Shown here: piece by piece, positions 4,886-54,296 of the stretch
Layout of the letters: the number at the start of each line of letters is the position of its first letter
How positions within the stretch are numbered: position 1 is the first letter of the stretch
Assembly (NCBI GenBank): GCA_964486635.1
Contig: CAZAOB010000001.1
Coordinates: forward strand, 84,745 to 148,744
Direction: 5' to 3'
Origin: an uncultured Caulobacterales bacterium
GTDB taxonomy: Bacteria; Pseudomonadota; Alphaproteobacteria; Caulobacterales; Parvularculaceae
DNA: 64,000 bases
Translations under genes and position numbers: made by a program
The notes under the pieces: generated by a model
What the model saw: only the letters and a program-made list of their open reading frames with translations
Database searches by the model: none
What the model was told of the DNA's origin: nothing

Positions 4886-5254
4886 ATGCGTATCAGAAAA
4901 TTTGTCGCCGCCCCAACTCTTGCGATGTTGCTCGGCGCTTGTGCGTCAGCTCCGTTTGGATATGCCGACAACCGATGCACCGGCCAGCAAAACCAGTGTC
5001 AGAGCGATTGCTCCGATTTGAATGACGGACCGGGCCGGTCAGCCTGTATCCAACGCTGTTATTTTGTCGAAACACGCTGCTCCGCCAGCGGCTATAACGG
5101 CTCAGGTTCGACGCTCGCTGTCGATAGCGGAGTCGCCGCTTCGCGTAGCCGTGCGGAAAAAGAAGCCGCCTATGAAGAATGGCGCGCCAAAAAGGCGCGC
5201 GAGCGCGCCGCTTCCGGTGAGAGCGACGTTGAAATCAAGGTGAACCAACAATAG
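4886..5254 (+). CDS. Cys-rich lipoprotein, function unknown
   Basis: MRIRKFVAAPTLAMLLGAC lipobox, then 7 further Cys within about 50 residues and a charged Lys/Glu/Arg-rich C-terminus. Start placed at the internal ATG 4886, which creates the signal peptide. Confidence 0.55.
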   Translation: MRIRKFVAAPTLAMLLGACASAPFGYADNRCTGQQNQCQSDCSDLNDGPGRSACIQRCYFVETRCSASGYNGSGSTLAVDSGVAASRSRAEKEAAYEEWRAKKARERAASGESDVEIKVNQQ

Positions 5255-5296
5255 CCTGCCAATAATAATAAATGCCCATAGGGGGGCGACCGCTAG

Positions 5297-6403
5297 ATGA
5301 TCAAACGAAGACAACTCTTGGCTGGCGGCACCGCCGGGCTGATGGCTGGCTGTGAGTGCGGAGTTCCCGCCGGCGGCGGCGGCATTCCCGGCTCTATCGC
5401 ATCACGCGAGCTAAAGATGGTGACGACCTGGCCGAAGGATTTTCCGGGCCTCGGCACCATGGCGGAGCGGACGGCGAAGTTTATCACTGAAATGTCCGGC
5501 GGCGCGATCACCGTCCGCGTGTTCGCCGCCGGAGAGCTTGTCAGCGCTTTTGAATGTTTCGACGCCGTCTCAAACGGCGCTGCGGACATGTATCACGGCG
5601 CTGAATACTACTGGGTCGGCAAATCGCCAGCCTTTGCTTTCTTTACCGCTGTTCCGTTCGGCATGACGGCGAATGAGATTATGGCGTGGACGGAGTTTGG
5701 CGGCGGCCAGGAGCTCTGGGACGAATTGTCGGCGCGCTTCAACATAAAGCCATTTGCCGCCGGTAATACTGGCCACCAGATGGGCGGATGGTTCAAACGC
5801 GAGATCAGATCATTGGAAGATCTGCGCGGCATGAAAATCCGCATGCCCGGCATGGGGGGTGAAGTGCTGCGCAGGATCGGCGCATCAGCCGTCGCTATCT
5901 CCGGCGGTGAAATTTATCCGGCGCTGCAATCGGGCGCCATCGACGGCACCGAATGGGTCGGCCCCTGGAACGATCTCGCCTTCGGTTTTCATCAGGAAGC
6001 GAAGTATTATTACTGGCCGGGCTTTCACGAACCGGGGGCACAGCTTGGCGTCGGGCTGAATCTCAATCTCTGGAACACGCTGACGGTGACGGAGAAGGCG
6101 ATCATCCAGGGCGCCTGTCAGCGCGCCAATAACCTCTCTATCGCGGAATACATTCACCATAACGGCGCCGCGCTTGAGCAACTGATGAACGAACATGGCG
6201 TACAGCTGCGTCAGATGCCTGACGATGTGATGGCGGCGCTCGCACGCGAATCCAAGAACGTCCTCGAAGAAGCTGCGCGCAATGACGCCTTCACTGGCCG
6301 CGTCTATGAAAGCTTCAAGGCGTCGCTTGCACGTTCGATGCAGTGGGGTGGCATCTCCGATGAAGCCTACATGGCCAAGCGCCGCGAAGTGTTTTCGCTG
6401 TAG
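5297..6403 (+). CDS. dctP: TRAP transporter substrate-binding protein (DctP family)
   Basis: Tat/lipoprotein-like leader MIKRRQLLAGGTAGLMAGC. DctP-type body (TWPKDFPGLG..., ..IRMPG.GGEVL.., GAIDGTEWVGPWND). Followed directly by the Q and M genes. Confidence 0.85.
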   Translation: MIKRRQLLAGGTAGLMAGCECGVPAGGGGIPGSIASRELKMVTTWPKDFPGLGTMAERTAKFITEMSGGAITVRVFAAGELVSAFECFDAVSNGAADMYHGAEYYWVGKSPAFAFFTAVPFGMTANEIMAWTEFGGGQELWDELSARFNIKPFAAGNTGHQMGGWFKREIRSLEDLRGMKIRMPGMGGEVLRRIGASAVAISGGEIYPALQSGAIDGTEWVGPWNDLAFGFHQEAKYYYWPGFHEPGAQLGVGLNLNLWNTLTVTEKAIIQGACQRANNLSIAEYIHHNGAALEQLMNEHGVQLRQMPDDVMAALARESKNVLEEAARNDAFTGRVYESFKASLARSMQWGGISDEAYMAKRREVFSL

Positions 6404-7176: not shown

Positions 7177-8798
7177 TGGAGTTCGAGATCGCCAATGTCG
7201 CGTTCTGCACCTGCGCGCTCGCCGGCTGGCTCGATATCTTGATGGTGCTTGCGCTCTGCGCTCTCTTGATGGCTGGCTACCCTGTCGCCTACTCGCTGGC
7301 TGGTACGGCGCTGATATTCGCGGTGCTCGGCGTCGCCGCCGGCGTCTTCGATATTTCCTATCTCATTCCGTTTCCGCAGCGCGTGTTCGGCGCTGTAAGC
7401 AATACGACACTGATCGCCGTGCCCATGTTCATCCTGATGGGCGTTATTCTTGAGAAATCGAAGATCGCCGAAGAGCTGCTGGACGAGATGGCGAAACTGT
7501 TCGGCTCACTGCCCGGCGGCCTTGGCCTTTCCGTCACCATCGTCGGCATGCTCCTTGCTGCCTCAACCGGCATTGTCGGCGCTACCGTTGTCACCATGGG
7601 ATTGCTCAGCCTGCCAACCATGTTGCGGCGCGGATACGATCCTGCGTTCGCATCCGGTTCAATCGCCGCCGCCGGCACGCTCGGTCAGATTATTCCGCCA
7701 TCGATTGTCCTGATCCTGCTTGGCGACGTGATCTCAAACGCCTATCAGCGAGCGCAGCTCGAACAGGGCAATATGTCGCCGGACACGGTGTCGGTCGGTC
7801 ACTTATTCGCCGGCGCGCTGTTGCCGGGCCTAATGCTCGTCGGCATGTATATTCTCTGGCAATTATTCGTCGCGCTGACCCAACCCAAAAAGGCGCCGGC
7901 AATTCCCGCAGCCGAACTCGGCAGCCGCGTCGAAGTCTGGCGCGCGGCGATGAAAACCCTGCCGCCGCCGCTTCTTCTCATTGTCGCCGTGCTTGGTTCT
8001 ATCCTCGCCGGCGTCGCCACGCCGACAGAAGCCGCCAGCGTCGGCGCTATCGGCGCATTGTTGATCGCCGGGATGCGGCTTGCACCGAAAGGATCGCTGC
8101 TCGCAGGGCGCCACGCCGTTCTGGTTTCGGCGCTCGCAATTGCAGGGCTATTTGTCCTGACCGCCAATCTCGACCTCCGGCTCGGACGGGAAAACGTTTC
8201 GTCCATTGAGACCATCGGCATTGCCGTTGCGTTCTTGTTGTTCGCGCTGACGCCATGGGGCATCGTCGCCAGCCTGTTTCAGCTCGCCCGCGAAAAGGCG
8301 CTGGCGCCGATTGCCGACCAGACTGCGCGCGTGACGACCATGGTCTTCACCATCCTGATCGGCGCTGCTTTGTTCTCACTGGTGTTCCGCGGCCTTGGCG
8401 GCGACGACACGGTTCACCGCGCGCTGGAAGCGACGCCCGGCGGCGTAACGGGCGCCGTCATCACCGTGATGCTGGTCATGTTCCTGCTTGGCTTTTTCCT
8501 CGACTTCATCGAGATCACGCTCGTTGTTGTCCCGCTGGTGGGACCGCCGCTCCTCGCCATGGGCCTCGATCCGGTGTGGCTCGGTGTGATGATGGCGATC
8601 AATCTGCAGACATCGTTTCTGACGCCGCCCTTTGGCTTCGCCCTGTTTTATTTGCGCGGCGTTGCGCCGCCCGACGTTAGAACCATGCACATCTATCGCG
8701 GCGCGTTGCCCTATATCGCCATTCAGTTGCTGGCGCTTGCCGTCATCGCGCTCTGGCCGCAAATCGCAACCTGGCTGCCGGGTGTTCTGTACGACTAG
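7176..8798 (+). CDS. dctM: TRAP transporter large permease (DctM family)
   Basis: Polytopic membrane ORF with DctM-type motifs (LIAVPMFILMG, GQIIPPSIVLI, TPPFGFALFYLRGV). Start set to ATG 7176, overlapping the dctQ stop. Confidence 0.9.
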   Translation: MEFEIANVAFCTCALAGWLDILMVLALCALLMAGYPVAYSLAGTALIFAVLGVAAGVFDISYLIPFPQRVFGAVSNTTLIAVPMFILMGVILEKSKIAEELLDEMAKLFGSLPGGLGLSVTIVGMLLAASTGIVGATVVTMGLLSLPTMLRRGYDPAFASGSIAAAGTLGQIIPPSIVLILLGDVISNAYQRAQLEQGNMSPDTVSVGHLFAGALLPGLMLVGMYILWQLFVALTQPKKAPAIPAAELGSRVEVWRAAMKTLPPPLLLIVAVLGSILAGVATPTEAASVGAIGALLIAGMRLAPKGSLLAGRHAVLVSALAIAGLFVLTANLDLRLGRENVSSIETIGIAVAFLLFALTPWGIVASLFQLAREKALAPIADQTARVTTMVFTILIGAALFSLVFRGLGGDDTVHRALEATPGGVTGAVITVMLVMFLLGFFLDFIEITLVVVPLVGPPLLAMGLDPVWLGVMMAINLQTSFLTPPFGFALFYLRGVAPPDVRTMHIYRGALPYIAIQLLALAVIALWPQIATWLPGVLYD

Positions 8799-10009
8799 GC
8801 CAAAGATTTTAGATCGACGTTGACATCACCAAGTTTTTTGGCGTCGATCGAAGCGCCGATCGTGATCAATCGCTTGCCCATGGCGAAGGACGCGGGATCA
8901 TTGATCGCATCGACCGCAAGCGCCTTGCCGTCTTTCAGATACCAGACCGCGAACTTTTTCTCGGCTGGATCGCCTCTGACTACCAAATCATCATGACCTT
9001 CGTGCAGTCCCACGGTCTGCAGCTTCACATCATACTGGTCCGACCAGAACCAGGGCATCGCATCATAGACAACGGCGCCGCCCACCATATTCGCCGCCGC
9101 CGCCTTTGCTTGGTCGATGGCGTTCGGCACGGACTCAAGGCGCATGCGCCTGCCATAGCGCGGCGATGGAAAATTCGTGCAGTCTCCGGCGGCGAAGATA
9201 TGCGGATCGGACGTGCGCGCATATTCATCAACGACGATGCCGTTATCGATGGCGAGGCCCGCCTCCTCGGCGAGCGCAAGTTCCGGCGCCGCGCCAATGC
9301 CGACCAACGCGGCGATGCATTCAATCGTCTCTCCGGCAGCCAGGCGCACGCCATCGACCCGCTTCTCGCCTTCGAACCGCTCCAATCCAGCGCCAAGTCG
9401 CAGATCGACACCCGCGCCGCGATGAAGGTTTTCGTAAAATGCCGAAACCGGTTCACTGGCGACACGCGCCAAAACTCGCGGCGCCATTTCAAGCACCGTC
9501 ACGTGACGGCCTTCCTGACGCGCCACCGCCGCAACCTCAAGCCCGATATAGCCGGCGCCGACAATCACGATCTGTCCAGGCGCCATAAGCAACGGGCGCA
9601 AGCGTTCGGAATCGGCGAGCGTTCGAAGATAGTGAACGCCATCAAGCTCAGCACCCGGACAACCGATCCGCCGGGGCGGCGCACCCGTAGCGATCAGCAG
9701 CGCATCATAGGGAAATGTCTCGCCTGAATCGGTTGCGACCGTCTTCGCGGCGCGATCAATTGCGGTCGCGCGCATTCCGAGATGCAGAGCAACCGATTGC
9801 GTTTCGTAAAACTCCGCTCCGCGCAAATATAGCCGATGCTCGTCGAGCTCGCCCTTCAAATAGGCCTTCGAAAGCGGCGGGCGCTGATAGGGTGGCGCGG
9901 CTTCCGCGCCAATCATCGCAATAGTTCCCTTGTAGCCGCCTTGCCGCAGGGAAATCGCCGCTTGCGCGCCGGCCTGTCCGGCGCCCACAATCACAACGCG
10001 CTCAACCAT
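8795..10009 (-). CDS. FAD-dependent NAD(P)H:ferredoxin/rubredoxin reductase (putidaredoxin-reductase-like)
   Basis: VVIVGAGQAGAQAA FAD motif, second dinucleotide motif IVIVGAGYIGLEVAA, AAGDC motif and the C-terminal reductase dimerisation region (WFWSDQYD). Confidence 0.85.
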   Translation of the reverse strand: MVERVVIVGAGQAGAQAAISLRQGGYKGTIAMIGAEAAPPYQRPPLSKAYLKGELDEHRLYLRGAEFYETQSVALHLGMRATAIDRAAKTVATDSGETFPYDALLIATGAPPRRIGCPGAELDGVHYLRTLADSERLRPLLMAPGQIVIVGAGYIGLEVAAVARQEGRHVTVLEMAPRVLARVASEPVSAFYENLHRGAGVDLRLGAGLERFEGEKRVDGVRLAAGETIECIAALVGIGAAPELALAEEAGLAIDNGIVVDEYARTSDPHIFAAGDCTNFPSPRYGRRMRLESVPNAIDQAKAAAANMVGGAVVYDAMPWFWSDQYDVKLQTVGLHEGHDDLVVRGDPAEKKFAVWYLKDGKALAVDAINDPASFAMGKRLITIGASIDAKKLGDVNVDLKSLA

Positions 10010-10189
10010 TCTTAGTTCTACTTTTCAAGGCAAACTCTCGTTCCTGCGGCGTCAAATAGAAGCGACTGCCAAAAATGCTGTTCCAATCGGCTCTGAAGGA
10101 TTTAAGGGATAGCCTCACGAACCGCAATCAAGCCAGTAATGCTCGCTACCCTCGATCCACACCAGCACGACCACGGAGCAGCCCAAGCC

Positions 10190-12334
10190 ATGCCCACAAG
10201 AGCCGAATTGACTATTGACCCGCAACTTACTGCGTTCGTCGAGAATGAAGCACTCAATGGCGTCGATGTCAGTGCGGACGAATTCTGGCGCGGGCTATCC
10301 GCGATCATAGCTGATCTGGGGCCTAAAAACGCGGACCTCCTCAACAAGCGTGATGCTCTGCAGGCCAAACTCGATGATTGGCACGGTCGTCATGCCAAAA
10401 CCTTCGATACTCAAGAGCTGACGACATTCCTCAACGAGATCGGATATCTCGCACCCGAGCCCGCGCCATTTGAGATTTCCACCGCGAACGTTGATGAAGA
10501 ACTCCGAGCCATCGCGGGGCCTCAGCTCGTTGTTCCCGCCAGTAACGCGCGTTACGCGCTTAACGCCGCCAATGCCCGCTGGGGCTCGCTCTACGACGCG
10601 CTTTACGGGACCGACGCGATTTCCGAAGAAGGCGGAGCCGAACGCGGCGGTGCGTATAACGCGGTGCGCGGCGCCAAAGCCATTGCCCGTGGCCGCGCCC
10701 TGCTCGATCTCGCGGCGCCGCTGGAGAACGGGTCGCATTCAGACACGCTCGCTTACGTCGTCGAAAACGGAGCGCTGACAGTCGAAACTGCTTCCGGCGC
10801 CACAAGCTTAAAACAGCCGGAAAAATTCGCCGGTTATCGCGGCGATCCCACATCCCCTTCCGCTATTTTGCTCAAGAACAACGGCCTGCATCTGGAAATC
10901 GTCATCGATCCCGCGAGCGCCATCGGAAAGACCGACAAGTCCGGCGTCGCGGACATTGTCATCGAAGCGGCGGTCAGCACCATCGTCGATTGCGAAGACT
11001 CAGTCGCCGCCGTCGATGCGGAAGACAAGGTCAGTGTCTATCGCAACTGGCTCGGCTTGATGAAGGGCGACCTCGAAGACACATTCCAAAAGGGCGGCAA
11101 ACAGGTCACGCGCAGACTCAATTCCGACCGCGACTTTGTTTCGCCGAACGGCAAGCCCCTCTCGCTTCATGGGCGGTCCATGTTGCTCGTCCGCAATGTC
11201 GGCCACCACATGCTGACCGGGATTATCAAAGACAAGAATGGCGACGAAGTCCCAGAGACCTTTATTGACGCAGCTGTGACGTCGCTCATCGCGCTGCACG
11301 ACCTCAAAAACGTCCGCAAAAACTCACGCGCCGGCTCAGTCTATATTGTCAAGCCGAAGCTGCACGGCCCGGAAGAAGTCGCCTTCGCCTGCGAATTGTT
11401 CGGCCGCATCGAAGCGATGCTCGGCATGACGAAAAACACCCTGAAAATCGGCGTTATGGACGAAGAAAAGCGCACTTCCGCAAATCTGTCGGCCTGCATT
11501 CATGCGGCGCGCGAACGGCTGGTATTCATCAATACCGGCTTCCTCGATCGTACCGGGGATGAAATCCACACGATCATGCACGGCGGAGCAGTTTTGCGTA
11601 AAGGCGCCATCAAGGACGCCGAATGGATCAAGGCCTATGAAGCGCGCAATGTCGGCATCGGCCTCGCCTGCGGGCTGTCTGGCCGCGCGCAGATCGGCAA
11701 GGGCATGTGGGCGGCGCCCGACATGATGGCGGCGATGCTGGAACAGAAAATCGGCCATCCCAAAGCAGGCGCCACAACTGCCTGGACGCCCTCGCCAACC
11801 GCTGCGGCGCTGCACGCCATGCATTATCATGAGGTCGATGTCTTTGCGCGTCAGCAAGAGCTCAAAGGCAAGAACACCGGCGATCTCGACAAGCTGCTGA
11901 CGCCGCCCTTTGCAGCCGGAGCGAATTTCTCAGAGGACGAAATCCGCGAAGAACTCGACAATAATGTCCAAGGCATTCTTGGCTATGTGGTGCGCTGGGT
12001 TGATCAGGGAGTCGGCTGTTCGAAAGTGCCGGACATTCACGATGTCGGCCTGATGGAAGACCGCGCGACCTTGCGCATTTCGTCTCAGCATATCGCCAAC
12101 TGGCTGATGCATGGCGTCGTTACGCGCGACCAGGTGATGGAGGCGCTGAAGCGCATGGCAGCTGTCGTCGACAAACAGAATGCCGGCGATCCGGCCTATG
12201 CTCCGATGGCGCCGGGCTTCGACGGGCCGGCATTCAAGGCCGCTTGCGCGCTGGTGTTTGACGGCGCAGAACAAGCCAATGGTTACACCGAGTTCCTGCT
12301 GACGAAGTTTCGCCTCGAAGCGAAGGCGCGCTAG
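10190..12334 (+). CDS. glcB: Malate synthase G
   Basis: Full-length similarity by eye to MSG (N-term ..[18 protein letters not shown].., ..[13 protein letters not shown].., ..MDEEKRTS.., ..[14 protein letters not shown]..). Start moved to ATG 10190 to match the usual MSG N-terminus. Confidence 0.95.
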
Positions 12335-43834: not shown

Positions 43835-45550
43835 CTATCTGGAGATGATGTAATCTGGGGATGTCATGACAAAGAGCACCGCCGTGCGGACGCGAAGCTC
43901 GTCTCGGCTGAAGGTTCCATTGCCGCCAGCGATTGCGTTAATTGCACTTACAATTCTGGATCGCGTCGAACCCGACAATGAGCGTGCCGTCAACAAAAGA
44001 TCGAGGTGATCGACGAGCGCCGCCGCATCGCCGGCGAGCGCCAATTCAGCCGTGTAGTCGGGAGCGAAGTTTGTGCGACCTCCGCGATTGACGATGAAGT
44101 CGTCCATAAAGTTCGCATAGCCGGTGACGCTGGCTGCCGTGGTGATCTGAAACTCTGGTGCGACCATTCCCGCTGCGGCGCTTTGCGTACCGGGCGCTAC
44201 GAAGCCAGGGCGATAGAAATTGAACACCGACGGAGATCTATAGGCCTGCTGATTTAGCCGAGCGGGTGAGCGGGTGTCGCGCACTTCCTCAACCGAGGCG
44301 ACGCGTGTGCGCGCGACTCCAAACGCCCGCGCCCAATGCGTGAAACGAATAACAGGTTCGCGGATCTTACCATAAGTGGAGTCAGCTGCAGCAGCCGGAC
44401 TGCGGGCCTCGACATCCATGAGGATCGCCGCAACCACCGCTCGCATGTCTCCGCGCCCGCCGCCTCCTGCAACTTCTCCGCCGGCGAACACATAGCGGCC
44501 ACTGCGAAAGGCATCCGCAACTCTGCCTACATATGCCGGAGATGGATTGCTGGTGACGAGGCGTTGTATCAACTGGCGCGAAATGAACGGCGCCGTATTC
44601 GGGTGCTGAAACAAAGTGTCCAGCGCAATTGAAATGCTTTGATCGCCGGATGTGTTGGCAGGTATGGTTCTGCCGAGGAATGACTTGGGTTCTTCCGAGT
44701 GCTCTTCATCATACATAGCGAGTGGCAGGTATTCAGAACGAACCGTGTCGGGCGATCCAAGAAACTGAGAGCGTTCGGCCCAGCTAAGGCCAGTAAAAAC
44801 TTTGGCAAGTTCCGTGACGTCGCCATTGTCATAGGTTTCAATTGGCTGGCCTCCGCCATCGAGACGAAGCTCGCCGTTAGGCGTTAACTCCAGTGTTCCG
44901 ATGGTGAAGAGCTGCATTATTTCACGCGCATAGTTCTCGTCTGGAACCACCTCGCGCGCAGCATCGGCCTTCTGATTTTGCAAGTAAGTCAGCCAAATCG
45001 CCATTGCGGGACTGTAGGTGACATTCCCCAAAGTCTGGCGGAAGTTCCCGAACGCGCCAGCCGACATCATATCCATGTAATTGGCCATGGCGACGGGCCG
45101 CTCCTCCAGCGCGCCGTCGCTGTAAGACGCGACCAGGATCTGTGAGAGCGCATAACCGACACGCTGTCGGAGTTGGTCATCGCCAGTTATCGCACGTGTC
45201 CAGAATGTCTCGCTAAGTTCGTTGCGACCCGCCTCGGCACCAGAGGCCTCCACCAGCAGAACGCTTTGCAACAGGGACTCCTGGGGCTTGGCGAACTGCC
45301 GATTGAACCAGGGTGCGTATCCGATCGAGCGCAACTCTTCGATGTCGGCGGTCGTTGCGCCAAAAGTCGCCTGGTTCAGAAATCGAGAAGCTTCGACCGC
45401 CGTAATCGCAGCCGTTGGCGAGGGCGCCGCCGCTTCTGGCGGCGGATCGCTGGGTGACTCGCTTCCACTGGAACAGGAGGCCGCGCCGACAAGCAGCGCT
45501 GCGCCTACCATTGCACGTTGAACGCATTTGACCGCGTGATTGATCGCCAT
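43835..45550 (-). CDS. DUF1800-family lipoprotein
   Basis: Lipobox LLVGAASC. Has the ..FLNQATFGAT..DIEELR..G...W...Q.. signature of DUF1800. Lies 10 nt upstream of its usual DUF1501 partner. Confidence 0.8.
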   Translation of the reverse strand: MAINHAVKCVQRAMVGAALLVGAASCSSGSESPSDPPPEAAAPSPTAAITAVEASRFLNQATFGATTADIEELRSIGYAPWFNRQFAKPQESLLQSVLLVEASGAEAGRNELSETFWTRAITGDDQLRQRVGYALSQILVASYSDGALEERPVAMANYMDMMSAGAFGNFRQTLGNVTYSPAMAIWLTYLQNQKADAAREVVPDENYAREIMQLFTIGTLELTPNGELRLDGGGQPIETYDNGDVTELAKVFTGLSWAERSQFLGSPDTVRSEYLPLAMYDEEHSEEPKSFLGRTIPANTSGDQSISIALDTLFQHPNTAPFISRQLIQRLVTSNPSPAYVGRVADAFRSGRYVFAGGEVAGGGGRGDMRAVVAAILMDVEARSPAAAADSTYGKIREPVIRFTHWARAFGVARTRVASVEEVRDTRSPARLNQQAYRSPSVFNFYRPGFVAPGTQSAAAGMVAPEFQITTAASVTGYANFMDDFIVNRGGRTNFAPDYTAELALAGDAAALVDHLDLLLTARSLSGSTRSRIVSAINAIAGGNGTFSRDELRVRTAVLFVMTSPDYIISR

Positions 45551-45727: not shown

Positions 45728-48700
45728 CTAAAACAAAAAGTCATCCTGATGGAGGTCGGCGACGAGGACGCCATTGAGGGTGATGGAGCCCGCGCCAAGG
45801 ATGATGGTGGTGTCGGTTCCGTCGTCGGATGCGTTGGCGAGAATGTCGGCGAACTCATCGAACGCCGCGCCGAAGCCCGAGATGAAGATGACATCGTCGC
45901 TGGCTTCGCCCGCATTGAAGCCGTTGATGAGGTCGTCGCCGTCTCCCATGGCGTATTCAAAACGGTCATCGCCACCGCCGCCATTGATTTCATCATCGCC
46001 GGTTCCGCCGATCAGCGTGTCATTCCCGACATCGCCCAAGAGCACATCATTGTCTGCGCCGCCGTTGAGCAGATCATCGCCGCCGCCGCCATTCAGCGTG
46101 TCGTTTCCGGCGTCGCCATAAAGCTCGTCATTGTCCACATTGCCGAAGAGCTGATCGGCGCCGTCACCGCCACTCAACGTGTCGAGGCCGGCCCCGCCAA
46201 ACAGCGTGTCGTTTCCGCCTTCGCCGTTGAGCAAGTCGTTGCCATTAGACCCGGCGAGAAGATCGTCGCCGGTCCCGCCATTCAGCGTGTCGGTTCCATT
46301 GCCGCCATAGAGTTCGTCATTTTCGGTTCCGCCGAACAGCAGATCATCGCCATCGCCGCCGAGCACGGTGTCATTGCCGGCGTCGCCATGGACCGTGTCA
46401 TCGCCGCGTGTGCCGGCGACGAGATCATTTCCGTCATCGCCGTGGACGAGATCGTCGTCATTGCCGCCCACAGCGGTGTCGCTTCCCGCGCCGCCATAGA
46501 CTTCGTCAAAGCCGCGCGTGCCGGAGATGTTGTCATTGCCGTCGCCGCCCAGCACAGTGTCGTTCCCGTCGCCGCCCAGCACAGTGTCGTCGCTGATCCC
46601 GCCATCGACAAAATCATTGCCGGCATTGCCGGTCAGCAGATCCGAGCCCGGGCCGCCATCCAGAGTGTCGGCGCCGGAACCGCCGTAAAGCTCATCAGTG
46701 CCGTTGCCGCCTTCGAGATAGTCATCGCCCTCGCCGCCAGCGAGCGTGTCGGAACCAAACCCCGCCGAGAGATGATCGCCTTCCGCGCCGCCGAAAAGCT
46801 GGTCATTACCATCACCGCCATAAAGAAGATCCTGGCCAGCGCCGCCGGCAAGCGTATCGAAACCGGCGTTGCCGCGAATCTCGTTGTTGGCGGAGTTGCC
46901 GGCGAGAAAGTCATTTCCCGATCCGGCGTCCATGTTTTCGATGACCGTATCCGGCGCAATGAACAACGTCCGGTGGTTGACGCCGATCAACGATCCGTCC
47001 GTCAGTGAGTAATAGGAAATGTCCGTACCCACATCGATCCACGACCCGGGCGTCAGATTGATGGAAAGGTCGGATGTTCCCGGCAGGTTCAACGTATCGT
47101 TTCCGCCATAGTCCCAAATCGTGGCGAAGATACGGTCAGTATTTTGCAGCGCATAAATCGTGTCGCCGCCGAGCGTCGTCGTGTTGACGCCATAAGCGGC
47201 CTGCAGCGCCTGAATGTCGAGCCACATCAATGTCTGAGGGAACAAATCAGGCAGCGCATCGACGCCGAGCGCGCGAAACCCGGACCGGCTCATGATCGAA
47301 TATTCGCCGCCTAGGAGTTTGAAATCGACGACGGACGCGAGGGCGGAGAAATCGGGATGCAACAGGCCGAGATTATGCGTGAACTCGTGAAGCGTGCGGT
47401 TATAGAGAAAATTATCGGTCGAAAGGCCCGCAGCGCCGAAATTGCGGAAGATTTCCGCATTCTCTTCGCCCTTGTCGACATTGACCCAGGTTTCGCCGGC
47501 CATCGTCCAGCCGGGAAAGCCCGACCAGCCAGTGACCAGCGCGCCGGACGCGCTGCCGAGTTCAATATCGGTATCGCCTATGCGGAACGTACCGGCCTCA
47601 ACGCCCGCATCGTCGACTTGGACAAACTGGATATTCGTCAACAGTTCGATATGGGCGATATTCGTCAGAAAGGCGTCGAGGACCACTCCGCTCGCGGGCA
47701 CGTATCCGATATTCCATTCCGACGCGACTGCGTTTTGAACGCCGGGCGACGTCGCCGCAACTGCACCAGGAATGCTGTAGGTGAGCGTCGTGACGCCGTC
47801 GCCGTCACGGTCGAGAAAGATGGGTTCCGGCGCGGTTGGGTCGGTGTATGTGAAGAAAATATCGATTTCAGCGTTGCCAGTAAGCGTGAAGATTTCGCTG
47901 GCACGGATTGAATAGGCGCCGCGATCATGGGCGGACACCGATACGCTGTAGTCGCCGACGGTTTCGCCGGCGCCCGCGCCGATGGTGATGTAATAGATTC
48001 CCGTCGAATCCGGTGTGAATGTAATCTGGTGCGCGTCGAATGGTCCGCCCGCGGTGAACGTTCCTTCGGCGGCGGCTGTTTCGATCAACATCGGATCGAC
48101 CGGATCACCGGAAGCGTCCACGAAGGTTACGATTTCAATATCGTCGATTTCACCGAAAAATCCGATGTCATTACCGTAAACCGTAATGTCGACGGCAACG
48201 CCTGCTTCGAGCGAGAGCGCGATTGTATCGGTGTCGCCATTGCTGCCGATATGACCGTCCTGCGTCTCCCAGATCGCGATCGGGTTGCTGGGATCGAGGT
48301 CGTTGGAAAAATCGTCCGCTGGCGCTGTAAACTCTTCGACACTTAGCGCCCAGCTTCCGCCGAGATCGCCGGAAAAGTTCGGACTGACAACGACAAAATA
48401 GGTCCCGTTTGCGGCAGGGGTGAACAGCAGCATGGCGGCGAGGCCGGCGGCGCTGTCATCGTCGGAAAATCCGAGGGAGGCGCCCGAAGCATTCAGAATG
48501 TCGCCAATGCGCGTATCGAAATCTGACGTCGTGCCGCTGTTTTCCGGCGTCAGCGTAATCCGGTAGGTTTGTCCGGCCAGGAGATCGACGCCAATCGCAT
48601 CGCGGTCGAAAAATTCACTCCCGGGAGAGGTAAAGCCAATATAAGTGCCGCCCACAGCTACGCGCTCGGGCGAAGTGTGATCGCCTGGGATCGTCGTCAT
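45728..48700 (-). CDS. Secreted RTX-repeat metzincin (serralysin-like zinc protease) with two N-terminal PPC-like beta-sandwich domains; probable type-I secretion substrate
   Basis: HEFTHNLGLLH (HExxHxxGxxH) encoded at 47357-47389 with a downstream SIMS Met-turn. A long block of GGxGxDxUx nonapeptides follows. Acidic/hydrophobic C-terminus ending ..DLHQDDFLF, with no N-terminal signal peptide. Confidence 0.9.
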   Translation of the reverse strand: MTTIPGDHTSPERVAVGGTYIGFTSPGSEFFDRDAIGVDLLAGQTYRITLTPENSGTTSDFDTRIGDILNASGASLGFSDDDSAAGLAAMLLFTPAANGTYFVVVSPNFSGDLGGSWALSVEEFTAPADDFSNDLDPSNPIAIWETQDGHIGSNGDTDTIALSLEAGVAVDITVYGNDIGFFGEIDDIEIVTFVDASGDPVDPMLIETAAAEGTFTAGGPFDAHQITFTPDSTGIYYITIGAGAGETVGDYSVSVSAHDRGAYSIRASEIFTLTGNAEIDIFFTYTDPTAPEPIFLDRDGDGVTTLTYSIPGAVAATSPGVQNAVASEWNIGYVPASGVVLDAFLTNIAHIELLTNIQFVQVDDAGVEAGTFRIGDTDIELGSASGALVTGWSGFPGWTMAGETWVNVDKGEENAEIFRNFGAAGLSTDNFLYNRTLHEFTHNLGLLHPDFSALASVVDFKLLGGEYSIMSRSGFRALGVDALPDLFPQTLMWLDIQALQAAYGVNTTTLGGDTIYALQNTDRIFATIWDYGGNDTLNLPGTSDLSINLTPGSWIDVGTDISYYSLTDGSLIGVNHRTLFIAPDTVIENMDAGSGNDFLAGNSANNEIRGNAGFDTLAGGAGQDLLYGGDGNDQLFGGAEGDHLSAGFGSDTLAGGEGDDYLEGGNGTDELYGGSGADTLDGGPGSDLLTGNAGNDFVDGGISDDTVLGGDGNDTVLGGDGNDNISGTRGFDEVYGGAGSDTAVGGNDDDLVHGDDGNDLVAGTRGDDTVHGDAGNDTVLGGDGDDLLFGGTENDELYGGNGTDTLNGGTGDDLLAGSNGNDLLNGEGGNDTLFGGAGLDTLSGGDGADQLFGNVDNDELYGDAGNDTLNGGGGDDLLNGGADNDVLLGDVGNDTLIGGTGDDEINGGGGDDRFEYAMGDGDDLINGFNAGEASDDVIFISGFGAAFDEFADILANASDDGTDTTIILGAGSITLNGVLVADLHQDDFLF
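45965..46930 (-). repeat. Coding tandem repeats: RTX (hemolysin-type Ca-binding) nonapeptide array, roughly three dozen units
   Basis: Protein segment ..GNAGFDTLAGGAGQDLLYGGDGNDQLFGG...GGGGDDRFEY. The repeat periodicity also produces a long spurious ORF on the opposite strand. Confidence 0.9.
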
Positions 48701-49276: not shown

Positions 49277-50950
49277 ATGACAAACATTTTTATCAGCTAT
49301 TCACGCAATGATCGTCAGATCGTGCAGCAGATGGCAACAGCCCTGCAACAAGACGGCTTCAACGTTTGGTGGGACAGGGAAATTCCGCCGGGCAGCACAT
49401 TTGCAGACGTAATTGATAAGCGACTGAATGAGGCACACTGCGTTCTGGTGATCTGGTCTTCGTCTTCAGTGAAGTCGAACTGGGTGCAAGAAGAGGCAGA
49501 TGACGGACTGCAAAGTGGCCGCTTGATTCCGGTCATGATCGAAGAGATTGATCTGCCGCGTGGCTTCAAGCGCCTGCAAACTGCTAACCTGATCAACTGG
49601 CGAGGTGATCGCGCCGCACCAGAGTGGGTCAGCGTTGTCTCCGAAGTGCGCCGCCTTGTCGCGCAGGGCCAGGCTGCATCCGCACCGAAAGCGGCGGCTC
49701 CAAGGATTGCAACGCCAAAGCCCGCTGCACCAAAACAGTCAGCGCCGAAACCTGTTGCGCAGAAAGCATTGCCTTCACATGCGCCGAAGCAACCCAACGC
49801 GGCATCCAGCAGGCGCACAACGCCTCAGCCCGCCGCGAGGCAAGCGCCTGTCCCAACGCCGAAGAAGTCTGGCGGAGCCGGAGCGATTTTGGGACTGGTT
49901 GCTGTCTTCGTCGTCGCACTTGGCGCTGGCGGCTATTTTTTTCTAAAGTCTAAATCCGGCGAAGTGGTCCAAGCAGAAGCCGAAAGCCATCCCATTGCAT
50001 CAAGCGAGTTGCAAACCGCTGAAGCGACAGTTCCCGCGCCGGATGTTGGCGCAGCTCTGAATGAGGGTGTGGCGGAGCCGGCGGATGGAAACCTCACAGT
50101 ACTTGCCGCAGCTGACACTGAGTCGATGGCCGACCCGGTAGACGAGGTCCCAGTCGAAACCACTCCCGAGGTGACGGATGTGGAGCCACACAAGCCTCAG
50201 CCAGGTGAGATAATTCAAGATTGCGGATCTTGTCCGGAACTCGTGGTGATTGCTGCAGGCGCTTCGGTCATGGGCGCCCCCGATGGAGAGCGCAGCAGCG
50301 AAGCGGTCGAGACACCACAGATCCAAGTGCGCTTGGACTATTCATTTGCAATCGGGCGCTTTGAAGTAACACATGAACAGTGGGCGGCTTGCCTCGCCGA
50401 TGGCGGCTGCGGAGCATACGAACCAAGTGATAATGGCTGGGGTCGAGGCAACCGACCTGTGATCAATGTGTCTTACGACAATGCACTAGAGTACGTGGCG
50501 TGGCTGTCTGCAAAAACTGGCGCAAAATATCGTTTGCCCAGCGAGTCGGAGTGGGAGTTCGCCGCTCGTTCCGGAACTACCACGCCATTTTCGACTGGCG
50601 ACACTATTTCCACGCGCCAAGCAAACTTTAACGGCCAATATCCCTATGCTGGCGGAGCGCAGGAGCGATCTGCAGGAAAAACACTTGCGGTTGGAAGTTT
50701 TTCGCCAAATGCGTTCGGCATTTTTGACACGCAAGGCAACGTGTGGGAGTGGGTTAGCGATTGCTGGAAGCCTTCGCACCGCGATGCCGACCCATCAGGC
50801 ACGCCAGTTGGCGGCGTATGCTCACAGAGGGTATTGAAAGGCGGTGCCTGGAACGGCGGCGCGTGGCGTGCCCGCTCAGCACACAGAAAGCCCGCCAAGT
50901 CTTCGACCGGCGACTATGATGCTGGTTTTCGCGTGGTCCGTGAATTGTAA
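49277..50950 (+). CDS. Single-pass membrane protein: N-terminal TIR domain, Pro/Ala/Lys-rich linker, TM helix, C-terminal FGE-sulfatase-like (FGS/SUMF1-type) domain
   Basis: TIR_2-type start MTNIFISYSRNDRQ.., ..VLVIWSSSSVKSNWVQEE.. (S.W...E motif). TM GAGAILGLVAVFVVALGAGGYFFL (about 49871-49945). FGE fold motifs ..RFEVTHEQW.., ..RLPSESEWEFAAR.., ..GNVWEWVSDCW.., ..VLKGGAW.., ..GFRVVR... Start set to ATG 49277 behind GGGGAAA. Confidence 0.85.
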   Translation: MTNIFISYSRNDRQIVQQMATALQQDGFNVWWDREIPPGSTFADVIDKRLNEAHCVLVIWSSSSVKSNWVQEEADDGLQSGRLIPVMIEEIDLPRGFKRLQTANLINWRGDRAAPEWVSVVSEVRRLVAQGQAASAPKAAAPRIATPKPAAPKQSAPKPVAQKALPSHAPKQPNAASSRRTTPQPAARQAPVPTPKKSGGAGAILGLVAVFVVALGAGGYFFLKSKSGEVVQAEAESHPIASSELQTAEATVPAPDVGAALNEGVAEPADGNLTVLAAADTESMADPVDEVPVETTPEVTDVEPHKPQPGEIIQDCGSCPELVVIAAGASVMGAPDGERSSEAVETPQIQVRLDYSFAIGRFEVTHEQWAACLADGGCGAYEPSDNGWGRGNRPVINVSYDNALEYVAWLSAKTGAKYRLPSESEWEFAARSGTTTPFSTGDTISTRQANFNGQYPYAGGAQERSAGKTLAVGSFSPNAFGIFDTQGNVWEWVSDCWKPSHRDADPSGTPVGGVCSQRVLKGGAWNGGAWRARSAHRKPAKSSTGDYDAGFRVVREL

Positions 50951-51005
50951 CGACGATTTATTTGGCCGTTTTCCGTATGCATTGACGCTGGTTCCTGCTC
51001 GACGT

Positions 51006-53492
51006 TCAGCTCGTACCAGCAGAGTGTGTGGGTGAAATGATCACAGGCGGGCTCATCACCGGGCGACGACGGAAGACGCTCGGTGATGCAAATTCCCCAG
51101 GCACGCGCCCTTGACGACGCCAACTAACGATATCGCCAGTGCCGCCAGTGCCGAGACTTTCATTGCCGTCCCAAACTGCAATCAGCACGTCCGCTCGTTC
51201 GGCAATGTAGGCGCCAGCCAGCGCGTATTGCCTTTCTCTTGCGGCGGGATACGTCCCGTCTCCATAAGTGAGACTTACATCCGTCAGATCGCCAAACTTT
51301 AAGGGGAGTTCAATATAGCGTTCGCTCAGTGCTACGAGCCTGCGCAGCTTTTCTGCAGGACCCTCTCCTCTACTCGTTGCTGATCGCGACCGCTCATAAT
51401 CCTGACTGTAGGCGTCATATGGCATCGGCAACGGCACCCAGTAGGGGATATTCAACTCCAAAGCGATCTCGGCGGCAATGGTGTCAGTGCCTTCGGCGAG
51501 CGCTGTCAATATGACTGGCGCGCGATCGGGATTAGCGGCAATTTGTCTACCAATCTCCTCCCTCAGCGATTTGCGAATGTGTTCCTGATCTAGATCGCGA
51601 TTGCTACCGGGGCGATGGCCAACGACGCCGATAACGAATTCACGTTTTATCTCTAAACCAACGCAGGCCACAGTTTCCTGAAGGCGCGATGCAAGACCCT
51701 TATCGAATGTTTTCTCGTTGTCTGACAGCGCGGACCAAGGACGCAGCAAATCATGGCGGCGGGCTGCATCAACCCGCTTTTTTCCATACGCCCAACCACT
51801 GAGAAATCGCTCATTCAGCCAGCGGTGATGTTCCATCTTGGCGAGCAATTCATGCTCATCATCTGTAAGATTGAGCCGAGCGTCCGCAGATTTTTTTTCC
51901 GTGATCCGAAAGCGCATCGCTGTCGCTTTGGCCCAAATGTGATCGGCCGCCTGCCGACTCGATTCCCGGAACTCTTGCGGTAGTCTTTCCCACTCACGCT
52001 CCGCCCTCAGCGTTACCGAGGCTTCAGCTGCGGCTGTCCCACGCGAGCCGCTTCGATCGCCGACGTAGCTAAAATGCAGATGCTTGGCAATTTCCTCACG
52101 CATTGAGTCGATCAACGTAGGAACAAAAAAATCATCCTGATCGCCGGTGAGAATGTCTTCGACCGCGCCAAATGCAAAAATCCCGTCCGGAATTTCATTT
52201 TCGACCTCCAGACTGTGCCCGGAGTGCTGGTCATGAACGCGGCGATCAACATTTGAACGCAATAGCTCACCGATGCCGCGCGTGTTCGCCAAGTGGACAA
52301 GGATCGGAGCATTGACTCTCCTCACCCCCCCTTCACCCGCATCGGGGCGAGTCAACAGCAGCCGCCGAAGTGACAAGGCGACATTGACCGAAACTTCAGG
52401 CTGTTCATAGCAAACCACGTGCAGTGTAGATTGTTCCGGCAGCCGAGAATAATCGTTCGAAGAAATCCCATTCGGGTGAATTGTGAGCAGACGAACATCG
52501 AGGTTCGCCATCTTGCCGATCTCTGGGATCAAGGCTCGAATTTCATGCCGGCAATCATCCGGCTGCGCCGTAAACAAAGTGATGTTGACGCGGTTTTCAC
52601 TTGCACTCGTGCTCTGACGCAAGGTTTCGACGATCACTTGCGTAGACAAGGCGTTGTGTCCGTAAATGCACAAATGCAGAGCTGATTGGCCCTGCGCATC
52701 CGCATAGATCTCGGGTGGATGCGCCCGAATGACCCGCCGCGCTGCAATTTCCTCGATACTGAAGAACCGCGGACGCGCCGATTCAGACATTCCGGCAAAC
52801 TTGAAGTATTCCCCAAGGCGAACACCAAAGCCCGCCTCTTTCAGGCGCACCCAAAGGTCGCGATCCGATTTTCTTGAGGCTGAACCGATGCGTGCTTTGC
52901 CACGAATTTCAGCATTTGCCGAAAGGACAAATTGAAGACTGTCCGTTGCTTCTTGCAGAAATGATATCGCTATCCGTGAACGATGAATTCGCGCACGCGC
53001 GAGCACTGAGCGCGAGCCCGGATCACCCTTGATTAAGATTGCGCCGCCGCGCCGACACTTCGCGGCCAACGCATTCGGCGGGTTCGGATCAATGATCACG
53101 ACGCCTGTTCGCTTTTTCACCTGGTTGAAAGACGCGAGAAGGAACAGCGTTTCATCGTTTAGCCCCGCCAGAACCGCATGGCCCGAAATGCGGGACAGTC
53201 GCAGCGTTTGCCAAACATGGAGGAACAGCTGCGCCGTGAACAACTCGACAATGCCAACTATCGTGAATACAGGCGCCACGTAGGCCTGCATTTTTACAAA
53301 GGTGTTCACGTCCTGCTGAAAGGCCCAGTCGCCACTAAGCACAAACAGCTGAAGGATCTTATAGGCATCATAATAAACAGACCCAGGGCCGCCACCATAG
53401 ACCTGCAGCGACACGACACCCGCGTAAACAAAGATCGCGAAGAGGATTGCTAGACCGACAAGCCTCTTGGTTTGACCGTTTAGGTCCGACAT
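51006..53492 (-). CDS. 2-TM protein with two degenerate TrkA-N/RCK-like domains, a RyR-type repeat module and a C-terminal SLOG (Smf/DprA-LOG)-like domain
   Basis: TM1 LVGLAILFAIFVYAGVVSL and TM2 YVAPVFTIVGIVELFTAQLFL. TrkA-N-like pattern GHAVLAGLNDET..VVIIDPN..ILIKGDPGS..L..A.I, then a second copy (LHLCIYGHNALS..). RyR-like ..LLAKMEHHRWLNERFLSGWAYG...RHDLLRPWSALSDNEK... DprA/LOG-like VIGVVGHR...ILTALAEGTDTIAAEIALE...VLIAVWDG..LGTGGTGDIV. The ORF itself is solid; the domain names are motif-level calls. Confidence 0.75.
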   Translation of the reverse strand: MSDLNGQTKRLVGLAILFAIFVYAGVVSLQVYGGGPGSVYYDAYKILQLFVLSGDWAFQQDVNTFVKMQAYVAPVFTIVGIVELFTAQLFLHVWQTLRLSRISGHAVLAGLNDETLFLLASFNQVKKRTGVVIIDPNPPNALAAKCRRGGAILIKGDPGSRSVLARARIHRSRIAISFLQEATDSLQFVLSANAEIRGKARIGSASRKSDRDLWVRLKEAGFGVRLGEYFKFAGMSESARPRFFSIEEIAARRVIRAHPPEIYADAQGQSALHLCIYGHNALSTQVIVETLRQSTSASENRVNITLFTAQPDDCRHEIRALIPEIGKMANLDVRLLTIHPNGISSNDYSRLPEQSTLHVVCYEQPEVSVNVALSLRRLLLTRPDAGEGGVRRVNAPILVHLANTRGIGELLRSNVDRRVHDQHSGHSLEVENEIPDGIFAFGAVEDILTGDQDDFFVPTLIDSMREEIAKHLHFSYVGDRSGSRGTAAAEASVTLRAEREWERLPQEFRESSRQAADHIWAKATAMRFRITEKKSADARLNLTDDEHELLAKMEHHRWLNERFLSGWAYGKKRVDAARRHDLLRPWSALSDNEKTFDKGLASRLQETVACVGLEIKREFVIGVVGHRPGSNRDLDQEHIRKSLREEIGRQIAANPDRAPVILTALAEGTDTIAAEIALELNIPYWVPLPMPYDAYSQDYERSRSATSRGEGPAEKLRRLVALSERYIELPLKFGDLTDVSLTYGDGTYPAARERQYALAGAYIAERADVLIAVWDGNESLGTGGTGDIVSWRRQGRVPGEFASPSVFRRRPVMSPPVIISPTHSAGTS

Positions 53493-53689
53493 AAATGTCC
53501 TTTGTGTTGCAACTTCGTCAATCTAGAGCCCTTATACTGTGACACTTACTCCGCGAGACTTGGACTGCTGGCACACGTCAGCCAATCTTCAATCGCTACA
53601 ATGTAGGGTACTGAGTAGAACCCGCAGTTACATCAAACCCGCTTCACGTTCTTCGGTCTCGAGTCTTCTTTTGAACATTGTTCGCGGCG

Positions 53690-54296
53690 ACGGTAAAATG
53701 GCTGTATCTAAGGCGGCGGTCAATTATTGTGGGTGACAATCGCAGAATTAAACTCGTCATAGGGCGTACCAATGTGACAGGCCGCAATTGCTTAAAATGT
53801 GACCGTACGCGACCGATCGGAGCTAAATCCGCTCCCCCTATCGTATTGCGGAGACCAGCATTGGTTAGGTTGGCGAGAAGATTCCACCCACGAACGGCTC
53901 CGTTGATTGATTGACCATACGAATGCAGCAACTTGTTCCCTGGCAATTATTCAACAGCGTCTCGCCGCGATCTGCTTGGCTGTACCTTCAAAGATACAAT
54001 CGGGACCGACCCGGGAAACCTCCACTTATGGAGTTGATAGCTGGTTCGCACTAGGACGACGAAGCGCCGAGCAGACTCCAACGCCAAAGCCGAACGGCAC
54101 TAGCGATCGGCTCGATGTGGCTGACGTTTGGATGACGGTGCGACGCGAGGTTCTCAACGCCGAGTGGTTCGCCACTATCGATCAGGCGAAAACGGTCATC
54201 GGAAGATGGCTCAGGCAGTACAAAACCGTGCGCCCGCATCAGGCCCTTGGCATGAGGCCTCCGGCGCCGGAAACTCTATCAGAAGTTGGCACATAG
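53690..54296 (+). pseudogene. Decayed, 5'-truncated IS3-family (rve/DDE integrase) transposase remnant
   Basis: The last about 65 codons read ..VRREVLNAEWFATIDQAKTVIGRWLRQYKTVRPHQALGMRPPAPETL, the canonical C-terminus of IS3-type OrfB. Upstream frames keep only faint traces (..KWLYL.., ..IQSGP(T)RE.. for SDNGPEF, ..PKPNGTSDR.. for P..NG..ER) interrupted by stops and frameshifts. The 5' limit is approximate. Confidence 0.6.

Follow-up and report, generated by a model that had tools for sequence, protein, structure and literature searches.

A conserved gene pair encoding a predicted membrane TIR receptor and a 2TM-RCK-RyR-SLOG protein: a candidate Thoeris-type signalling module

The window analyzed here is a 64,000-nt stretch of DNA from a marine alphaproteobacterium, an uncultured member of the Parvularculaceae (GenBank assembly GCA_964486635.1, contig CAZAOB010000001.1, forward-strand positions 84,745 to 148,744). 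It carries two large genes lying tail-to-tail, one coding for a 557-amino acid (aa) protein with TIR and FGE-sulfatase domains and the other for an 828-aa protein in which two transmembrane (TM) helices are followed by RCK-like, RyR, and SLOG domains. Both open reading frames (ORFs), and the short gap between their stop codons, were found as described in the original prediction made from the nucleotide sequence (Table 1). Its five domain calls were likewise recovered, four of them (TIR, FGE-sulfatase, TrkA_N, and RyR) with Pfam and the fifth (SLOG) at the level of fold. For the length of the TIR protein, the ATG corresponding to the start of its homologues was used; a GTG upstream, at position 49244, is also open. 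No convincing terminator was seen in the 55-bp spacer itself, and a promoter/terminator scan over the locus gave nothing informative. As shown below, the two genes are a functional pair that has been kept together in other genomes.

A word-indexed search of 5.8 billion clusters returned only 11 full-length homologues of the 828-aa protein. Scans of GTDB genomes and JGI metagenomes, together with look-ups of the encoding contigs, gave 14 distinct loci, most of them metagenome-assembled. A gene for a TIR protein was adjacent to the full-length homologue, or one gene away, at 12 of these 14 loci, and co-localization of the two families, which had been proposed as a check, was thereby observed. 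When a TIR hidden Markov model (HMM) was run over every ORF of the 14 loci, the partner genes alone matched. A TIR-TM-FGE partner, convergent and adjacent, was found in the window and at loci L001, L002, and L007. Partners of the form TIR-3TM-WD40-3TM were co-directional and directly downstream at L005, L012, and L027 and convergent at L031 and at L008, the latter from the cultured strain Parvularcula mediterranea ZS-1/3. A TIR-TM-TPR partner lay upstream and co-directional at L028 and L030, with a conserved ORF of ~150 aa in between, and was convergent at L006, where a PEP-CTERM gene intervened. The partner TIR domains came from three different TIR subgroups.

The identities of the 828-aa protein homologues and of their TIR partners tracked each other between loci (81/67, 55/51, 64/62, 69/68, 61/62, and 71/68%, respectively). 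An all-against-all comparison of flanking ORFs showed that only the two genes were common between loci, even for the window and L001 (81% identity); the exceptions were downstream synteny between L003 and L004, both of which are without a TIR gene, and a few weak, isolated matches. The flanking genes were either housekeeping or miscellaneous (RTX protein, DUF1800, fixI/G/H, hemC, Mur ligase, polyphosphate kinase). Because the loci are related by descent, the 12 occurrences are not 12 independent events. The link has outlasted three or more swaps of the sensor domain (FGE, WD40, and TPR), several inversions or re-orderings, and moves to unrelated sites, and the pair behaves as a horizontally mobile two-gene unit. 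Since adjacency at 12 of 14 loci persists through changes of orientation, order, and sensor, coincidental adjacency is excluded, and the genes form a functional pair. The reservation expressed at the outset, that convergent genes might be linked by chance, can therefore be withdrawn.

Table 1. Features of the gene pair, in window coordinates
Feature	Position	Strand	Description	Basis
TIR receptor gene	49277..50950	+	557 aa; TIR – Pro/Ala-rich linker – 1 TM – acidic linker – FGE-sulfatase (PvdO-like)	ORF, Pfam
TIR domain	49277..49666	+	residues ~1-130; predicted cytoplasmic	phmmer vs PDB
Putative catalytic Glu (E73) codon	49493-49495	+		alignment to AbTir Glu
Single transmembrane helix	49886..49954	+	residues ~204-226	hydropathy scan
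FGE-sulfatase/FGS domain	50231..50941	+	residues 319-555; predicted periplasmic sensor	Pfam, topology inference
Spacer	50951..51005	.	55 bp between stop codons of the two convergent genes	sequence
Effector gene	51006..53492	−	828 aa; 2TM pore-like module – tandem RCK – helical linker – RyR – SLOG	ORF, AlphaFold2 (AF2), Foldseek
C-terminal SLOG domain	51027..51644	−	residues ~617-822; motifs GVVGHR, LAEGTD, WDG…GTGGTGD	AF2, Foldseek
RyR (R12-type) domain	51645..51854	−	residues 547-616, with H555, W558, H580, D597	Pfam
Second RCK-like Rossmann domain	52158..52691	−	residues ~268-445	AF2 β-α pattern; Foldseek to two-RCK rings of GsuK, TrkA, CASTOR
RCK1 / TrkA_N Rossmann lobe	52848..53186	−	residues ~103-215	Pfam TrkA_N, hhalign
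TM1 – short conserved helix/loop (…YKILQLFVLSGDW…) – TM2	53208..53471	−	residues ~8-95; candidate pore module	hydropathy; AF2 helices 4-32, 39-48, 55-59, 64-101

The TIR protein matched Pfam TIR_2 over residues 4-108 (E 3e-26) and FGE-sulfatase (PF03781) over residues 319-555 (E 5e-47). In a phmmer search of PDB, the nearest solved TIR domains were 7uxr (E 1e-8), AbTir (7uwg/8g83; E 2-4e-6), and PdTIR (3h16), all of them bacterial NAD-cleaving TIRs. The predicted catalytic-glutamate context, SNWVQEE, was present, and E73 lined up with the Glu of AbTir '…WTNYELD', which is the catalytic residue of that protein. The Glu of the [WF]xxxE motif was kept in all 12 partner TIRs. On these alignments, the TIR domain looks catalytically competent.

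Hydropathy analysis of the TIR protein showed no signal peptide; a linker, one hydrophobic helix (residues 204-222), an acidic linker, and the FGE domain follow the TIR domain. The best NCBIfam match of the FGE domain was PvdO (E 9e-50, far below the equivalog cut-off), a periplasmic protein. Because there is no signal peptide, a single TM helix lies between the two domains, and PvdO is closest, the TIR domain is predicted to be cytoplasmic and the FGE domain periplasmic. The number of TM helices between TIR and sensor domain was odd in all partners, being one in the FGE and TPR partners and three in the WD40 partners, which suggests that a periplasmic sensor is a common theme; a cytoplasmic TIR and a periplasmic sensor are predicted for all 12.

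The full-length AF2 model of the 828-aa protein (predicted local distance difference test, pLDDT, 78.9; predicted template modelling score, pTM, 0.77) consisted of a helix (residues 4-32), a short helix (39-48) and loop, a second long helix (64-101), two Rossmann-type domains, a helical region, RyR, and SLOG, in that order. Pfam TrkA_N matched residues 122-211 (E 1.6e-5; 25.6 bits, cut-off 23.8), and hhalign aligned the first RCK lobe of the family profile to the MthK RCK with a probability of 94.6%. PDB structures matched by the full-length model in Foldseek included GsuK (E 3e-9), the TrkA gating ring, full-length MthK, Slo1/Slo2.2, and the CASTOR ring. The GsuK match covered one chain, with 514 aligned columns of 546 residues, and the structure was ADP-bound. 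A phage 'potassium channel domain' protein was matched in BFVD. Hydropathy and AF2 helices, TrkA_N, hhalign, and Foldseek thus agree on the two N-terminal TM helices and RCK-like domains originally read from the sequence. With GsuK, MthK, and Slo among the matches, the accompanying idea of a membrane or ion-flux effector is plausible.

Within the membrane module, residues D42, Y44, F50, and G54 were invariant in the close family. The best-conserved part was the loop motif Y-x-x-h-Q-L-F-x-h-x-G-[DES]-W, which is retained in homologues with as little as ~25% identity. In order and spacing, the elements are those of a 2TM pore domain.

The RyR domain was identified with Pfam (PF02026; E 9e-13; 48.7 bits against a cut-off of 27.4) and aligned to RyR1-3 repeats in PDB (up to E 1e-17) and to an RyR-like protein of B. 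thetaiotaomicron. The pattern H-x2-W-x21-H-x16-D was invariant in 11/11 close family members, and its H/W/H/D columns were also conserved in the RyR1-3 repeats and the B. thetaiotaomicron protein; the exact pattern occurred in just 6 of 25 distant homologues. According to a May-2026 preprint, phage proteins of PF02026 ('RyDEP') bind 2'cADPR as well as 3'cADPR, both isomers of cyclic ADP-ribose (cADPR), with H, W, H, and D residues contacting 3'cADPR/ADP-ribose (ADPR), W78 stacking on adenine, and H100 contacting phosphates (PMC13232231). Its authors state that the ligand residues are conserved throughout PF02026, animal RyR Repeat12 included (PMC13232231). The offsets of H555/W558/H580/D597 (+3, +25, +42) are identical to those of H75/W78/H100/D117 of RyDEP, a correspondence of spacing, joined to that family-wide statement, and not a direct alignment. 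A tblastn search of phage genomes with the RyR domain returned two other phage RyR proteins only, DyoEdafos being absent. Since contact residues of the RyDEP type are retained, the RyR domain may be a second candidate receiver of the TIR product, alone or together with SLOG, and is arguably the better founded of the two. It had been proposed that the TIR protein generates a signal received by the SLOG domain; the first half of this proposal fits a TIR domain that looks competent, whereas the receiver need not be SLOG.

The C-terminal ~210 residues matched no model in Pfam (even at E<=10), NCBIfam, or PADLOC, and a profile search of PDB gave chance-level matches only. AF2 modelled residues 612-828, using ten homologues, with a pLDDT of 86.5 and a pTM of 0.86. 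The top Foldseek matches in PDB were YpsA (2nx2; E 7e-6, TM-score 0.63), ShosA, the LOG-family protein TM1055, Moco-carrier protein, DprA, and, weakly (E 6e-3), TRPM2 MHR1/2; viral 'YspA/cpYpsA-related SLOG' (YAcAr-type) proteins also matched the fold. Because all leading matches belong to the SLOG superfamily, we identify the domain as SLOG. The assignment first made from motifs was therefore correct at fold level, where sequence profiles are silent.

An exhaustive HMM search with this domain recovered 6,900 proteins at E<=1e-3 and 3,116 at E<=1e-10. About 40 cluster representatives of 750-930 aa have the SLOG domain likewise at the C-terminus, one of them (P0145) with the composition TrkA_N+RyR+SLOG, and the clade also includes RyR-SLOG proteins without RCK. 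In a large group, an N-terminal SLOG is fused to 2TM effector domains of the SLATT_1, SLATT_3, or DUF4231 type, which were present in 27 of 60 sampled relatives. Matches of the same 60 to YAcAr (PF10686; 10/60, best E 1.5e-4) and to YpsA (1/60) were weak. Fusions to STAND-like ATPase or histidine-kinase modules were rarer. A tblastn search of plasmids returned SLOG-domain relatives only, in 8 records, and TIR genes lay by the SLOG relative in all four plasmid regions opened, in three distinct contexts: SLOG-DUF4231, then a TIR protein and a WD40 protein, on a Caballeronia plasmid; TIR – caspase-family – small SLOG on Agrobacterium pTi and B. subtilis pBS72; and SLOG – TIR – caspase – TIR on a Methylorubrum plasmid. 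These contexts indicate that the SLOG clade is associated with TIR independently of the channel-like module.

On pTi and pBS72, the small SLOG relatives are stand-alone proteins of ~150-160 aa encoded directly 3' of TIR + caspase-family pairs that resemble type IV Thoeris; the small plasmid relatives lie at L042 5034-5483, L043 4995-5483, and L040 ~5001-5483. Phrases that would point to a third gene were looked for in the text of the type IV Thoeris preprint, and none occurred. The small SLOG genes could be an unrecognized third component of such systems, e.g., a signal buffer or hydrolase.

Several individual copies of the pair deserve mention. The ~150-aa ORFs between the TIR-TPR and effector genes (L028 5870-6322; L030 4760-5197) were 48% identical between the two loci and had no Pfam match; a third component in the TIR-TPR sub-clade is possible. 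At L027 (3263-5713 and 5775-7985), the SLOG motifs of the effector homologue P0007 are degenerate, with GSLS in place of GHR, LGPGLE in place of LAxGxD, and CDAEASFSEPGSIQD in place of WDG…GGTGD. The RyR H/W/H/D residues of P0007 are still intact, and the adjacent TIR-WD40 gene, which looks frameshifted, is missing the three TM helices usually found at the C-terminus. This copy may be decaying. In the Parvularculaceae metagenome-assembled genome that carries L006, the effector gene is split by a frameshift or stop into two ORFs (7726-8178 / 8197-10215), as a result of either pseudogene formation or an assembly error.

In the window, an IS3-family transposase fragment (rve_3, E 3e-13; 53907-54293, + strand) lies just past the start of the effector gene, and the G+C content is 0.53 at 52000-54000 compared with ~0.58-0.60 on either side. 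The IS3-type fragment and the dip in G+C are consistent with horizontal acquisition of the pair. On the other flank are genes for a 990-aa RTX-repeat protein (45728-48700, − strand; HemolysinCabind, E 4e-63) with an HExxH-like metalloprotease motif, 'HEFTHNLGLLH', and for a DUF1800 protein (43835-45550, − strand). Neither neighbour is kept beside the pair at other loci.

Relatives of each protein were also found elsewhere. Three TIR-FGE paralogues (L033, L034, and L036; gene at 7001-~8600 in each) occupy a conserved housekeeping slot between a Suv3-like helicase/TerB cluster and rpmB; at L036, the paralogue has a RelE/antitoxin pair inserted next to it. At L045 (1-6985), a gene for a distant homologue of the 828-aa protein, P0293, is divergent to three TIR_2 genes (227, 696, and 652+ aa) and to genes for a TPR protein and a 191-aa protein of unknown type, and L039 was too short for its TIR neighbourhood to be judged. 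The 2TM-RCK-RyR relatives of actinomycetes and of soil stop right after RyR and have no SLOG. TIR neighbours were sought beside these genes and none was found; two of the actinomycete genes (L010 11698-13137 and L014 11656-13164) are followed directly by a gene for a Hen1-type RNA-repair methyltransferase.

Taken together, we think it rather probable that the pair is a Thoeris-type TIR module, in which a periplasmic cue leads to an ADPR-derived signal that acts through RyR/SLOG to gate an RCK-channel-like effector. The inner-membrane receptor would sense the biological trigger through its variable, predicted-periplasmic domain (FGE-sulfatase/PvdO-like here; WD40 or TPR in relatives). Receptor clustering, induced by ligand or damage, would then switch on the cytoplasmic, AbTir-like TIR, whose presumed NADase/cyclase activity would turn NAD+ into a messenger derived from ADPR, most plausibly an isomer of the 2'/3'-cADPR type. 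Binding of this messenger to the RyR and/or SLOG tail of the effector would be relayed through the tandem-RCK ring, and the 2TM module with its re-entrant-like loop would open or otherwise switch. The resulting ion flux or depolarization might cause growth arrest, death, or a physiological response. A narrower version is tentative, and we regard it as possible rather than probable: an 'outside-in' pathway in which the TIR of a periplasm-facing receptor makes a cADPR isomer that gates a cation channel via a cellular RyR (R12) domain, with SLOG as co-sensor.

A number of observations weigh against the Thoeris-type module. With respect to linkage, no TIR gene was found near the effector gene at L004 or in the visible part of L003, where the contig starts 113 bp upstream of the effector gene, and none was nearby at the distant channel-SLOG loci L044 and L046 (2 of 3 informative distant loci). 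The TIR-TM-FGE paralogues, 46-48% identical to the window protein, sit without a channel gene, which suggests that a receptor-TIR of this kind also works alone or with an unlinked partner. Enrichment had been proposed as a test in both directions; a TIR gene is found beside the channel family, TIR-FGE paralogues stand alone, and the association is asymmetric. With respect to the effector, a K+ filter of the TVGYG type was not found, the loop reading 'LFVLSGDW' in the window and LFxhxG[DES]W in the family. A profile search of PDB with the membrane module gave no matches to channel pores, and hhalign to MthK aligned the RCK lobe only. AF2 confidence in the TM region was moderate. With neither a filter nor a pore sequence match, 'channel' describes an architecture here and not a demonstrated membership. 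PADLOC and NCBIfam models gave no matches to the effector, and their Thoeris models gave only weak matches to the TIR protein (ThsB and ThcB4), below cut-offs. SLOG domains of the ThsA type were absent from the top 50 Foldseek matches of the C-terminal domain, and the likeness to RyDEP, being one of spacing, belongs among these points. Residence in defence islands or mobile elements was looked for at the loci and was not found, the sole adjacent trace being the IS3-type fragment in the window. With housekeeping surroundings and no defence-island context, an anti-phage role is not indicated by the neighbourhood.

Other explanations of the pair were also considered. The TIR protein might deplete NAD+, as many bacterial TIRs do, and the channel-like protein might read the fall in NAD(H) or the rise in ADPR/ADP via its RCK domains or act as a parallel second effector. 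GsuK, which responds to NAD+/ADP through RCK domains, is the best fold match, in an ADP-bound structure, and distant homologues have strong TrkA_N matches (e.g., P0145, E 6.5e-16). Sensing of NAD(H) by RCK is ranked lower because close family members have a degenerate Rossmann glycine motif ('AGLNDET', 'YGHNALS'). Moreover, there is almost no variation in the ligand residues of RyR or the motifs of SLOG, which argues for functional ligand sites there, and the SLOG clade is TIR-associated independently of RCK. We therefore consider this explanation unlikely.

We give slightly less credence still to the possibility that RyR and/or SLOG are enzymes that process the TIR product, as a RyDEP-like glycosidase or LOG-like nucleotide hydrolase, so that they serve in turnover, not in sensing, and the membrane part is under some other control. 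The precedent is the RyDEP of phage DyoEdafos, a glycosidase with an H75/D117 dyad (PMC13232231) that is matched by H555 and D597, and which makes hydrolysis of the signal by the RyR domain an alternative to binding. The eight other RyDEP homologues assayed did not cleave the signal despite high sequence conservation; six of the eight bound it stably, and two were nanomolar sponges (PMC13232231). For SLOG, turnover would suit the small relatives that come after TIR-caspase operons, where the caspase is already the effector. The SLOG motif of the family, 'GGTGD(I/V)V', is, however, without the acidic residue of the LOG motif, 'PGGxGTxxE', and being fused to a membrane module, as to SLATT effectors, is usual for a sensor domain.

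Very improbable, in our view, is an adaptor role in which the TIR domain, as in animal TLR/MyD88, makes a protein-protein contact with the channel tail directly and no small-molecule messenger is involved. Direct contact is geometrically possible, both proteins being membrane-anchored, and the two genes co-evolve. Against such a role stand the catalytic Glu kept in all 12 partners, the enzymes found as nearest solved relatives, and the two nucleotide-binding-type domains conserved in the effector; the use of three TIR subgroups is also more in keeping with a diffusible signal than with a fixed interface. Finally, an accident of gene order between genes of unrelated function, for which one could cite their convergence and the homologues of either gene that lack the other, is effectively refuted by adjacency at 12 of 14 loci with three partner architectures in several orders and orientations and with other flanks hardly shared.

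If the Thoeris-type module is real, signalling by TIR and NAD-derived molecules gains transmembrane receptors with swappable periplasmic sensors (FGE, WD40, TPR) as input, and an RCK-type channel as a new output in bacteria. On the narrower version, TIR signalling would be triggered from outside the cytoplasm and not by intracellular phage components. One bacterial module would join three elements of the animal Ca2+ channels controlled by ADPR or cADPR, namely a TIR cADPR-isomer synthase, RyR Repeat12, and a TRPM2-like SLOG, and, on the narrower version again, would offer a prokaryotic precedent for the gating of the ryanodine receptor by cADPR and of TRPM2 by ADPR. Binding of 2'/3'cADPR by RyR was shown first in 2026, in phage anti-defence proteins (PMC13232231). 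A cellular RyR effector beside its own TIR would reveal what the phage RyR proteins imitate, and under the narrower version TIR signals would have their first host-side receptor with an RyR domain. The old, unsettled issue of cADPR-type ligands on RyR R12 domains would become testable in a simple system, and the presence of the pair in the cultured P. mediterranea ZS-1/3 makes it tractable.

The concept of a TIR protein coupled to an effector that senses its product is already known as Thoeris, and types I and III already provide examples of SLOG receivers. In a Dec-2025 preprint, 29 putative types of Thoeris are listed, among them TIR + ion channel (type X, signal unknown) and TIR + SLATT (type VII), as well as unverified effectors termed 'SLOG and 4TM' and 'SLOG patatin' (Yirmiya et al. 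bioRxiv 10.64898/2025.12.03.692087). TrkA, RyR, sulfatase, and WD40 are absent from its main text, and TrkA and RyR from the supplements searched (10.64898/2025.12.03.692087). The novelty claimed in the original prediction must be viewed in this light: the architecture itself was not found described in the texts searched, whereas the general argument made for it is dated by the 29 types (10.64898/2025.12.03.692087). As curated models miss the effector, the pair falls outside the described Thoeris types I-IV, and we place it in no described Thoeris type. No description of a 2TM-RCK-RyR-SLOG effector, or of TIR receptors that are paired with such an effector and have an FGE, WD40, or TPR domain in the periplasm, was found in the literature searched, outside which lies Burroughs et al. 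2015, the work that reportedly defined SLOG/SLATT.

The likeness to Thoeris type I (ThsB TIR + ThsA SIR2-SLOG) and type III (several TIRs + SLOG effector) lies in the linkage of TIR to an effector of the SLOG superfamily, with an ADPR-derived signal made by TIR and then sensed; the several TIRs of type III recall the three TIR genes at L045. Unlike these systems, the present effector is without SIR2 and its SLOG is YpsA/YAcAr-like. ThsB is small and soluble, whereas the present TIR protein is a large receptor in the membrane whose sensor is predicted to be periplasmic, and both a periplasm-facing sensor and the lack of a defence-island context set the pair apart from known Thoeris systems. Types X and VII share with it the coupling of TIR signalling to a membrane or ion-channel effector. 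The TIRs of type X form a separate, ThsB-like clade in which BLASTP detected no similarity to the TIR described here (E 0.6), and membership in type X, from which the pair is set apart by its TIR and by the wording of the paper, is not supported.

Among channels, GsuK, MthK, Slo/BK, and CASTOR/POLLUX share the order and spacing TM1 – short helix/loop – TM2 – RCK – RCK and are the best structural matches. The effector differs from RCK-gated 2TM K+ channels in having neither a TVGYG-type filter nor pore sequence similarity and in its additional RyR+SLOG tail. TRPM2, an ADPR-gated cation channel with SLOG-type MHR1/2, is likewise a channel with a cytoplasmic domain of SLOG fold; this is an analogy only, as pore and gating are unrelated (6TM TRP versus 2TM-RCK). 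The SLOG–SLATT proteins (Pfam SLATT_1/3, DUF4231) belong to the same SLOG clade (E to about 1e-32) and also fuse SLOG to a membrane effector, one of them beside TIR + WD40 genes; they differ in their N-terminal SLOG, in having SLATT instead of 2TM-RCK, and in lacking RyR. The phage RyDEP/RyR Repeat12 proteins are of the same PF02026 family, with the four ligand-contact residues at identical spacing (PMC13232231). In contrast to these, the protein described here is cellular, fused to a membrane effector, and encoded beside a TIR gene, so that it would be a host-side receiver rather than an anti-defence sponge or glycosidase.

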